Positions 10,685-13,059 of a stretch of DNA of 64,000 nucleotides are shown here, one piece after another. Origin of the DNA: Bdellovibrionota bacterium (GTDB lineage: Bacteria > Bdellovibrionota_C > UBA2361 > JBGSMV01); the NCBI GenBank assembly GCA_044356455.1, contig JBIKWF010000008.1, positions 1 to 64,000 of the forward strand, written 5' to 3'. Each line of letters begins with the position of its first letter. Position 1 is the stretch's first letter. The notes under the pieces were generated by a model, which saw only the letters and a program-made list of their open reading frames with translations, did not search any database and was not told the DNA's origin. The translations under genes and the position numbers were made by a program.

Positions 10685-10722
10685 GATACTTTATGGCGCA
10701 GGTTCTTGAAACCGCGCCAGTA

Positions 10723-10758
10723 CTGCGCAGTTACTTTTGCGCAGAAGTAACTGCGCAG
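10723..10758. repeat. Near-perfect 36-bp palindrome with three TGCGCA at 14-bp period
   Basis: CTGCGCAGTTACTTTTGCGCAGAAGTAACTGCGCAG. Confidence 0.8.
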
Positions 10759-10767
10759 AAGTCTCTG

Positions 10768-11094
10768 TTAGCGTAGCAGAGTGAGGCGTTCTTGGAATTC
10801 TTCGGGGCTTCTTTCGTAGCCACGCAGAGTTTCTTGAAGCGCGATTGGCTCAAGGTCAAGGTGAAGAGCAACCCAGGCAAAGCTAAAGGGCTTCTTGGGA
10901 GTGAGCTTGCCAAAAAGCCATTGGCGAGCGCTTCGTACTACGTGACGTTCACAGTGGGCGGTTCCAAAGGCGTCGCATATCGCCCGAGATAGGACGGCAG
11001 CGAGCAAGTTCCTTTCAGCTTTTACCGGGGAATAGGCTTCAACATCCTCTTCTCTCTCAGGTGAGAACCGGCTAAGTGCTGATGAGTTACTCAT
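10768..11094 (-). CDS. Small conserved-looking helical hypothetical protein
   Basis: ERNLLAAVLSRAICD...ARQWL...PFSFAWV..LDL pattern; GAGAGG RBS. Confidence 0.75.
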   Translation of the reverse strand: MSNSSALSRFSPEREEDVEAYSPVKAERNLLAAVLSRAICDAFGTAHCERHVVRSARQWLFGKLTPKKPFSFAWVALHLDLEPIALQETLRGYERSPEEFQERLTLLR

Positions 11095-11499
11095 GATTGG
11101 CCTCTCAAAAAGGAACTAACAATAAAAGATCATTCGTTGCGGGAACCTAGCGAAACTACCCCGCCATTTCTTGCCTTTCTCTGGCTCCAAGAGCCCATTC
11201 CTAGAGCCAATGGAGAACATTCTTCTCTCGTCATACCGGGCTCGCTCTACCCCCTATGCAGGGACAGCAATCGCTCGCGTTGTAATGGTGAGATGAGAAT
11301 GTAAGGTCAAGAACAAGAGACAACCTCTTGATATAATTAAACAATAGCAGGTTTGTTTAACGTAACTAAAGCTTTTACTCGGTTAAACCAAACGCGTCAA
11401 GTCTTTATTTTATTTAGCTTTTTTTTGTTGTGAGTGAGATGGTGTTTTATGTCATGTTGCGTGACGCGATCTGCCAGTGACGCTTTTAGTGACTCTGGT

Positions 11500-11528
11500 T
11501 TGACTTTGAACTTGAACTCCCCTAGTTT
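11500..11528 (+). promoter_or_regulatory. Sigma70-like promoter of the RRM-bS18 gene
   Basis: TTGACT-N17-TAGTTT, immediately before the structured leader. Confidence 0.55.
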
Positions 11529-11534
11529 CGCTCC

Positions 11535-11652
11535 TCGCACCGTTAGCTTCATGTTCCCGATAACGGGAGGATTAAGAGGCCTTTAAATCTGTGCTGAGGT
11601 CGGTAGGTGCCGATCTCTTCTCGAGGCATTTACTCGGCAGATTTGGGTGCGA
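11535..11652 (+). ncRNA. Candidate structured 5' leader RNA
   Basis: Nested helices TCGCACC/GGTGCGA, TCCCG/CGGGA, AAATCTG/CAGATTT, GTAGGTGCC/GGCATTTAC. Confidence 0.5.
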
Positions 11653-11694
11653 AATGGTGTTTAACGATTTGAATCCCCTTGGTTTAACGAGCGT

Positions 11695-12234
11695 ATGGCG
11701 AAGAAGCTTTTTGTTAGCAATCTTGATTTCGAAGTAGACCAGAACACCCTGCGTGGATTGTTCGCCGAACTCGGTTCCGTAATCAGCGCGGTTATCGCTA
11801 CGGATCGTGAAACCAAGCGCTCGAAAGGGTTTGCCTTTGTCGAGATGGAGCGCGAAGAAGACGCTCTTAAAGCCATCGAGACTCTTAACAATCGTGCCCT
11901 GAACGGTCGTCCTATGAAAGTCGTTGAGGATCGCGGCAAGGGCGGTGGCGCAGGTGGGGATGATGACGGCCCTCGTCAGCGTGAGTTCCTTCCTCCAATT
12001 CAGCGCATGCAGCTTTTCAAGCGCAAGAAGAAGCTTGATCCATTCATGGAAGACCCGACCAAGAGTGTCGATTACAAGGACGTAGTAGTTCTTTCTCGCT
12101 TCCTTAGCGAGCGCGGCAAGCTTCTTTCTCGTCGTCTTACGGGTCTTAGTGCCTATAACCAGCGCAAGGTTGGTAAGGCGGTCAAGCGTGCGCAGAATCT
12201 TGGGCTGATGGCTTTCACTAGCGTGAAGTCCTAA
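11695..12234 (+). CDS. rpsR: 30S ribosomal protein bS18 fused to an N-terminal RRM domain
   Basis: RNP2 LFVSNL and RNP1 KGFAFVEM; Gly/Asp linker; S18 signature VDYKD...LSERGKLLSRRLTG...QRKVGKAVKRAQNLGLM. Confidence 0.92.
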   Translation: MAKKLFVSNLDFEVDQNTLRGLFAELGSVISAVIATDRETKRSKGFAFVEMEREEDALKAIETLNNRALNGRPMKVVEDRGKGGGAGGDDDGPRQREFLPPIQRMQLFKRKKKLDPFMEDPTKSVDYKDVVVLSRFLSERGKLLSRRLTGLSAYNQRKVGKAVKRAQNLGLMAFTSVKS

Positions 12235-12267
12235 CTCGGTAGAGAGCTAGTCCTCCCGAGGATAGCG

Positions 12268-12309
12268 AAAGGCGTAGTGACTCATGTGAGTCGCTACGCC
12301 TTTTGTTTT
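12268..12309 (+). terminator. Intrinsic terminator, probably bidirectional
   Basis: AAA-GGCGTAGTGACTCA-TG-TGAGTCGCTACGCC-TTTTGTTTT. Confidence 0.9.
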
Positions 12310-12369
12310 ATGTAGCCGTAAATCTCAAAGACAAACGAGACAGCTCCTAAGCCGCGCCTTCGCACGCGG

Positions 12370-13059
12370 CTACTTTTTCGTCTCCCAGGCCTTGTCCCCA
12401 GGTATGTGAAAGACCTTTTGATTGGCCTTATTTACAGAATCGAGCTCAACGGCTTTGCATAGCTGCTCAAGCACATGCTTAATGCGTTTGCCGCTTGATT
12501 CAACAAGCTCCGCTGCTTCTTTTTGCTCCGGTGTGGACCCTTGAGCCGTAGAGAGCAAATAGGCAGCTCCTAGTACGGCACCCAAGGGATTATTGATTTC
12601 GTGCCGCAAGGTTCCGACGAGAGTCTTCACGGTGTCTATCACCGCTTGATTCAATTTCGCCTGCTCTAGTTCTTTCGAAAGCCGATTCCTATCAATGATG
12701 CCGAGAATCAGAGGCTTGAAGAGGGGCTCGCTGACGCTGCGTTTGCTTAGAAAAAAAGTTGCCCCCGCCTGAACGGTGGCTCCCGGAATTTCTGGAGCAT
12801 TGTCTGAGCTTACGGATAAAATCGCTTTGTCCCTGAACCAGCCTTCGGCAAGAAGTTCCGAGCCACGTCCGTCCGGAAGATGTTGGTCTATCACTATAAG
12901 ATCAAAATCTTGACTCTCTGGAGTTCGAAGATTCGCTCGTACCTCCGTGAGGCTTGCAAAGTGGGTAACGGAAGCGTCAGGCATAATTGCCTTGAGGCGC
13001 ATCTCGACGATCTTCTTAAAGGAAAGGTCGTCATCAATAATGAGAATGCGATGTGTCAT
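12370..13059 (-). CDS. Receiver domain + HisKA/DHp protein lacking an ATPase domain
   Basis: ILIIDDD and IDQHLPD receiver motifs; H-box LRHEINNPL; ends without N/G1/F/G2 boxes. Confidence 0.85.
   Translation of the reverse strand: MTHRILIIDDDLSFKKIVEMRLKAIMPDASVTHFASLTEVRANLRTPESQDFDLIVIDQHLPDGRGSELLAEGWFRDKAILSVSSDNAPEIPGATVQAGATFFLSKRSVSEPLFKPLILGIIDRNRLSKELEQAKLNQAVIDTVKTLVGTLRHEINNPLGAVLGAAYLLSTAQGSTPEQKEAAELVESSGKRIKHVLEQLCKAVELDSVNKANQKVFHIPGDKAWETKK

Follow-up and report, generated by a model that had tools for sequence, protein, structure and literature searches.

The window, the whole stretch of 64,000 nucleotides analysed here, carries at 11695..12234 on the forward strand a gene whose 179-residue product joins an RRM domain to the ribosomal protein bS18 in one open frame free of stops. 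Its parts, all on the same strand, follow one another without a break. The RRM (residues 1-80, 11695..11934), recognised by Pfam and by structural modelling, contains RNP2 as LFVSNL (residues 5-10, 11707-11724) and RNP1 as KGFAFVEM (residues 44-51, 11824-11847). A flexible Gly/Asp-rich linker (residues 81-97, 11935..11985) leads to a short segment, FLPPIQRMQLF (11986..12018), that alignment shows to be conserved ahead of the S18 core and that takes a PMGYFRAQP-type form in other orders. The Cys-free bS18 core occupies 12019..12231, and a basic patch, KRKKK, lies at residues 109-113. Profile matches are strong at both ends: Pfam RRM_1 covers residues 5-74 (E 7.5e-22), Ribosomal_S18 covers residues 123-172 (E 8.7e-22; 77.4 bits against a cut-off of 21), and the NCBIfam S18 equivalog TIGR00165 scores 70.6 bits against a cut-off of 38.75. 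Alignment of the core with E. coli bS18 leaves 18 invariant columns among five sequences and pairs K113 of the fusion with K9 of the E. coli protein, the RRM ending 33 residues earlier. An earlier note on this DNA had described just this arrangement, an RRM with both RNP motifs, a Gly/Asp linker and a Cys-free bS18 in one frame, and Pfam and TIGR00165 bear it out.

Could the junction be an artefact of assembly? The linker is crossed by single contigs from three public DNA runs (X2, 11793-12500; X3, 10993-12500; X14, 10700-12235), no indel is listed inside the gene in the public-run contigs, and relatives are fused too, so that this explanation is rejected; the earlier note had named separate domains in relatives, with a stop or frameshift in the linker, as what would speak against its reading of a fusion. 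Both Pfam domains are found in each of the top 120 among 598 homologues and in 41 of 41 aligned members. The structure predicted from the 41-sequence alignment has two confident domains (mean pLDDT 85.8, RRM about 90), the modelled RRM superposing on solved RRMs at about 0.8 Å rmsd; the linker is predicted to be disordered (pLDDT below 50 at residues 83-93) and the orientation of the domains is not fixed (pTM 0.44). From the one RNA run came just one contig, 239 nt long and loose at one end, over 11742-11945; it is not counted as evidence of transcription. Together, these observations confirm RRM-bS18 as a genuine in-frame fusion.

The gene stands as a unit of its own. A sigma-70-like promoter candidate, TTGACT-N17-TAGTTT (11500..11528, forward strand), would give a 5' UTR of about 160 nt (11535..11694, forward strand) with no SD 4-mer, no conserved leader and a fold z of -1.6. 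The candidate, proposed in the earlier note, is a sequence pattern that falls below the threshold of the promoter scan; the form TTGAC[AT]-N16/17-TA...T recurs within 230 nt upstream of 45 of the 56 distinct fusion genes of the focal order, against none of the 56 in the first 230 coding bases, taken as a control, and none of 14 upstream in other orders. Rfam gave only sub-threshold chance matches in the window. Beyond the stop codon, a terminator-like hairpin with a T-rich tail (12264..12309, forward strand; hairpin alone 12264-12307) folds at -33.3 kcal/mol (z -9.5; 0 of 200 shuffles as stable); it is absent from the list of a simple terminator scan and emerged from folding against shuffles, in agreement with the terminator proposed before. 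On the reverse strand, a conserved 108-residue protein is encoded at 10768..11094 and a response regulator-HisKA gene, often kept beside the fusion in relatives, at 12370-13059. Since these flanking genes are divergent and convergent, respectively, the fusion gene is monocistronic here, as had been claimed. The 108-residue neighbour adjoins the fusion in 72 of 84 loci (duplicates counted), divergent in the focal order and tandem upstream in other orders; it matches no Pfam or PHROGs family, shares 59-94% identity across nearly all relatives and 32% in one, and is placed by Atlas near unnamed clusters from bacteria and phages.

The source genome (93% complete) has a single S18 match, the fusion gene, which makes it the only rpsR there; a search for a second copy, suggested in the earlier note, found none. 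The same holds across the class: among 124 genomes searched, S18 was found in 116, always as a single copy, and in 113 of these it lies in an open frame of 170-268 residues. A specialised-ribosome paralogue, the other role envisaged before, is not compatible with the lack of a second copy in all 116 genomes that have a match. A search of the phylum, limited to 200 genomes at 85% completeness or better, gave 96, every one of the same class, so class and phylum appear to coincide; according to PMC13200544, the classes UBA2361 and Oligoflexia were moved into Bdellovibrionota_B in GTDB R226. Record titles name Bdellovibrionota, Oligoflexia, Deltaproteobacteria or Proteobacteria. Reading 84 S18 loci, some of them duplicates, showed the fusion in 80, with 72 distinct fused genes including that of the window. 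Of the 15 families outside the focal order, 14 yielded fused genes, and in the remaining one (G066) the gene is cut by a contig end; the distribution, which the earlier note had proposed to survey, is thus class-wide. In one non-fused genome, G097, assembled in about 800 contigs, a short deletion at the end of the RRM shifts the frame, probably as an error, and one named locus has the same frame break. Two small genomes, G061 and G062 (L087, L088), have a strongly diverged fusion with 36-38% identity, no DPF motif and a long branch in a fusion tree computed in quick mode.

The relocation of rpsR is also shared by relatives. The E. coli operon order, rpsF-(ssb/priB)-rpsR-rplI, is not that of the fusion, and no S18 was found at any of the 30 rpsF-rplI loci fetched from the 57 genomes with an rpsF match, L9 following S6 in all of them; the earlier remark that the gene lies outside its rpsF context therefore extends well beyond this genome. 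In the source genome, rpsF is followed directly by what we take, by sequence recognition, to be rplI, and preceded by presumptive pth, rplY and prs. Outside the phylum, no RRM-bS18 was found in representative, long-S18, viral and Atlas searches, which are weak tests: multi-RRM proteins dominate the representative search, with two fusions in the best 150; a survey of 120 of 5633 long-S18 matches had eight RRM+S18 proteins, all of this phylum's type; nearly all of 79 viral loci match the RRM part only, four having longer weak matches; and Atlas gave one cluster. Single-contig SSB-S18 and S6-S18 'fusions' are numerous in the protein database (P0392-P0510), and the two S6-S18 cases that were read appear to be operon neighbours joined by frameshift read-through.

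Part of the reason why the architecture has been overlooked lies in annotation. Eleven of the 64 NCBI '30S ribosomal protein S18' entries examined, of 72-82 residues, are exact tails of fused frames (P0271, P0273, P0284, P0286, P0287, P0288, P0293, P0296, P0299, P0300 and P0307), and full-length fusion entries exist under the same plain name. The Met at which the truncated calls begin lies inside the conserved segment at 11986-12018, so that gene calls from it drop the RRM, a blind spot that the fused frames expose. Is this Met also a start used by the cell, giving a plain bS18? A Met between RRM and S18 core is missing in 16 of 72 genes, and an SD 4-mer precedes it in 1 of 56, compared with 27 of 72 before the RRM start. 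An internal start is therefore unsupported.

The RRM appears to be held as tightly as the ribosomal protein behind it. Aromatic residues are kept at F6 and F46 in all 72 genes and at F48 in 71; the RNP2 position is Phe in 71 and Tyr in one, and the two RNP1 positions are Phe in 70 with Tyr in two, and Phe in 71 with Ile in one. Among 11 close pairs that are disjoint and belong mostly to a single genus, the RRM and S18 have the same dN/dS, 0.023; the linker has 0.024, and the conserved segment ahead of the S18 core 0.009. The distance from RRM end to S18 start varies from 22 to 64 residues in the 72 genes. Codon use resembles that of ribosomal proteins, with the whole gene at the 99.7th percentile, the RRM part at the 96.3rd and rpsF at the 89.9th, relative to 26 ORFs of the ribosomal-protein cluster, a few of them probably spurious. 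To judge from these substitution patterns, the fused RRM has an intact RNA-binding face and is under the same constraint as bS18.

Stand-alone RRM proteins occur in most genomes of the class, one or more in each, and it seems that tethering, not the mere supply of an RRM, is what has been retained. The one in the source genome (G000:C161:9453-9857, forward strand; locus L002) has a long Gly/Arg tail and is of the usual bacterial Rbp type. In an unrooted tree computed in quick mode, one branch (SH-aLRT 91) splits 26 fused from 11 stand-alone RRMs, which would be in line with a single origin. On whether S18 was inherited vertically or acquired, a separate tree is too short to decide (support 58); the closest matches outside the phylum are mostly unnamed or clostridial-labelled.

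The RRM has also been lost. In G069 (L084, G069:C117), stops lie upstream of a GTG start preceded by AGGA, and the linker is retained; elsewhere this genome has only a stand-alone RRM, and two relatives of the same family, G070 and G071, are fused. This loss marks the RRM as accessory rather than essential. The G069 genome is smaller, with 37% GC against 54-57%, and AT-richness might make an unfolding arm dispensable; the small genomes G061 and G085 still carry the RRM. Six database proteins are likewise RRM-less (P0274, P0279, P0290, P0301, P0302 and P0305), five of them by gene call alone. Together with G069 they nest among fused sequences, at four changes on a weakly resolved tree, so that the losses look secondary.

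Each domain is ordinary in itself. The S18 part is a zinc-free, C- bacterial bS18 (TIGR00165, PF01084), with its core over the cut-off, a basic N-terminal patch and no Cys in any of the 72 genes, but it differs in its tethered N-terminal RRM, in lying outside the rpsF-rplI locus and, unlike the zinc-responsive C+/C- bS18 pair, in being a single Cys-free copy with no C+ partner. The RRM part resembles the Rbp proteins (Bacteroides RbpA-C, Synechocystis Rbp1-3) in having one RRM with intact RNP1 and RNP2 followed by a Gly-rich stretch. The fusion scores 89.3 bits with the Rbp family NF058537, under its 100-bit cut-off, and whereas Rbp proteins stand alone, the fused RRM is joined to a core ribosomal protein and falls on a branch apart from the paralogues that stand alone in the same genomes. 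The chloroplast protein cS22/PSRP2, the third-best PDB sequence match, also brings an RRM to a 70S-type ribosome, again on its small subunit; it is described as a separate protein of land plants only, with two RRMs, located at the foot on 16S h6/h10, unlike a single RRM on bS18. The N-terminal extension of chloroplast bS18c is described as another lineage-specific addition to a platform protein, situated in the platform cavity and proposed to bind mRNA; it consists of short repeated peptides, and the algal uS2c addition is an OB domain, so that neither is a folded RRM on bS18. Bacteroidia, with their anti-SD pocket of bS21, bS18 and bS6, have likewise remodelled platform proteins across a lineage, but they lack SD motifs according to PMC13000457, whereas SD use is kept here. 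No PDB chain has both domains among the best 60 of 174 matches, and no description of an RRM-bS18 architecture was found in the literature covered, most subscription journals lying outside it. What is new is a folded RRM added to a platform protein across a bacterial phylum.

How might such a protein have arisen, and what would it do? In an early member of the phylum, rpsR would have left the rpsF-rplI locus, and its Cys-free bS18 would have been joined behind a single-RRM gene of Rbp type, the fusion then becoming the only bS18. As the sole copy it is expected in essentially all 30S subunits, although rpsR is described as non-essential in several species (PMC13000457); incorporation into the ribosome is very probable, and incorporation of the intact fusion only slightly less so. 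The bS18 part would assemble beside bS6 in its normal place on the 30S platform, with the RRM hanging from its N-terminus by a flexible tether of 22-64 residues. Published structures have the bS18 N-terminus touching mRNA between the SD helix and bS1, and the plant chloroplast bS18 extension projects into the same cavity as a proposed mRNA binder (10.64898/2026.07.03.736309). The RRM is thus joined at the mRNA-contacting end of bS18, which agrees with the placement next to the mRNA exit and the bS1 site given in the earlier note, and mRNA is its probable target. The reading we lean towards, with some reserve, is that every 30S bears an mRNA-binding arm on a flexible tether; it would bind single-stranded mRNA and serve as a built-in device for capture and unfolding beside bS1 during loading, possibly acting on exiting mRNA as well. 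It would be present on all ribosomes, probably have low sequence specificity and be helpful without being essential. Two studies report that stand-alone Bacteroides RRMs have no effect on ribosome assembly and serve cold adaptation (PMC13370968), and that Synechocystis Rbp3 prefers RNA near stop codons and co-purifies with ribosomes (PMC12232666); a role at the 5' UTR is therefore not the default of the RRM family.

A more specific proposal, that the arm biases the loading of transcripts or start sites by recognising sequence that lies upstream of the SD position, is possible and rather doubtful. The 5' regions of SD-less genes showed no motif peculiar to them. A TTTT element looked enriched before SD-less starts relative to shuffles, yet it is not specific: its frequency is 0.20 there, against 0.16 upstream of SD starts and 0.14 downstream of stops. 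Nor did SD use change in G069, and the selection of particular 5' UTRs suggested in the earlier note finds no backing here, leaving that interpretation, as a whole, partly supported.

The factors that the RRM might replace, among them bS1 and bS21, whose genes the earlier note had asked after, are in place. In the source genome bS1 has six S1 domains over two contig ends, taken as joined, and bS1 frames in relatives run to 560-603 residues among the matches listed; bS21 is present in 77 of 78 genomes and a cold-shock domain in 57 of 57. Since all three are still present, replacement of bS1, bS21 or cold-shock proteins by the RRM is rejected. The bS21 of the focal order, a neighbour of bS18, is itself extended at its N-terminus by a variable stretch rich in Arg, Gly and Asp, with GDRGGF repeats in the source genome (G000:C79:11168-11686, reverse strand; locus L074; codon use at the 98th percentile). 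Its frames measure 88-194 residues there (extended relatives at L106, L112, L115, L118, L121-L125 and L127-L131) and 66-120 elsewhere, 15 having been read on each side, the usual protein of other orders having 66-70. The extension suggests further remodelling of the platform, and a connection with RRM-bS18 is putative. Locus L103 (G087:C49) encodes another bS21 of that genome, apparently unrelated to the first; contamination of the genome is 6%, and the contig is probably foreign.

Might the RRM bind rRNA instead, as a chaperone of platform assembly, by holding the 16S 3' end or anti-SD so as to tune SD use, or in the manner of cS22? Among ribosomal RRM matches in the PDB, cS22 ranks first, and it is bound to 16S rRNA; PMC13000457 describes a Bacteroidia bS18 that lines the anti-SD pocket. 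SD use in the source genome is also below that of E. coli: an SD 4-mer precedes 409 of 1303 unambiguous starts (31%, background 8%), compared with 37 of 82 (45%, background 3%) in 252 kb of E. coli put through the same pipeline. These motifs are still about fourfold over background, however, and all 30 of the 16S tails keep an intact anti-SD core, so loss or sequestration of the anti-SD is not supported. In all 21 of the 16S sequences compared, the platform helices match those of E. coli in length (h26 26-30 against 29), with no deletion at the platform in any of them and hence no missing rRNA there for the RRM to patch. Among the 16S loci L133-L161, 20 sequences have a helix 6, and 21 a helix 17, shorter than that of E. 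coli, both helices being distant from the platform. Such short helices are probably common among bacteria. Loss of the RRM in G069 went without a shift in SD use: in 400 kb from each genome, the motif precedes 40 of 155 starts there, between 39 of 108 in G070 and 22 of 109 in G071, both fused (p 0.08 and 0.31). SD use is real and moderately below that of E. coli, and an rRNA target for the RRM is unlikely, although it survives better than the other alternatives.

A second alternative would place the action of the RRM away from the ribosome: bS6:RRM-bS18 in free form, or fusion protein in excess, would bind particular mRNAs (its own, rpsF-rplI or others) and regulate their translation, so balancing the separated genes. 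Autoregulation of rpsF leaders by S6:S18 is known, stand-alone bacterial RRMs are post-transcriptional regulators, and with rpsR and rpsF transcribed apart a new feedback link could be needed. Against this, no Rfam leader reaches the gathering score at 20 rpsF or 20 S18 loci, and the fusion 5' UTRs of relatives, whose promoter-to-start distance runs from 23 to 181 nt, share no motif beyond the promoter. Feedback on one or two mRNAs also fits less well with constraint on the RRM at the level of S18, and we regard this reading as improbable. It is more improbable still that the fusion is a polyprotein, its linker cut, or its RRM aiding folding or stoichiometric output, with ordinary bS18 on the ribosome. 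Eukaryotic ubiquitin-ribosomal protein fusions offer a parallel, the linker is disordered and variable, and RRM-less forms exist, but the alignment has no conserved cleavage-like motif in the linker, separate genes supply free RRMs, and re-initiation inside the frame is unsupported. Least probable of all is a tethered RRM that acts after initiation, protecting exiting mRNA, handing it to decay or localisation factors, or serving hibernation or cold survival: exiting mRNA passes the same position, and the studies on Rbp3, which co-purifies with ribosomes and binds near stop codons (PMC12232666), and on Bacteroides RRMs in cold adaptation (PMC13370968) would fit, but such a role shares its target, mRNA, with the preferred reading and differs from it in timing only.

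The core bacterial ribosome is usually treated as a fixed architecture, and folded RNA-binding additions have been described mainly in organelles. The organisms are known here from metagenome assemblies alone; the evolutionary facts are firm, and the function is inferred. A core platform protein bears an RRM throughout a free-living or host-associated lineage, on the stretch of the mRNA path between the SD helix and bS1, and the single gene offers a natural test of the effect of an extra RNA-binding arm on initiation. It also suggests a site at which a tether might direct ribosomes towards mRNAs of choice. G069, with its RRM lost, its linker kept and fused relatives in its family, is a ready comparison. 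On the bolder and rather doubtful reading that such an arm also biases loading, every 30S across a whole phylum would carry a covalent RRM at its mRNA path as a second capture arm beside bS1, to which the focal order would add the Arg/Gly/Asp-rich extension of bS21. Such an arm would be a bacterial counterpart, built into the ribosome itself, of the RRM-bearing eukaryotic initiation factors eIF4B and eIF3g.
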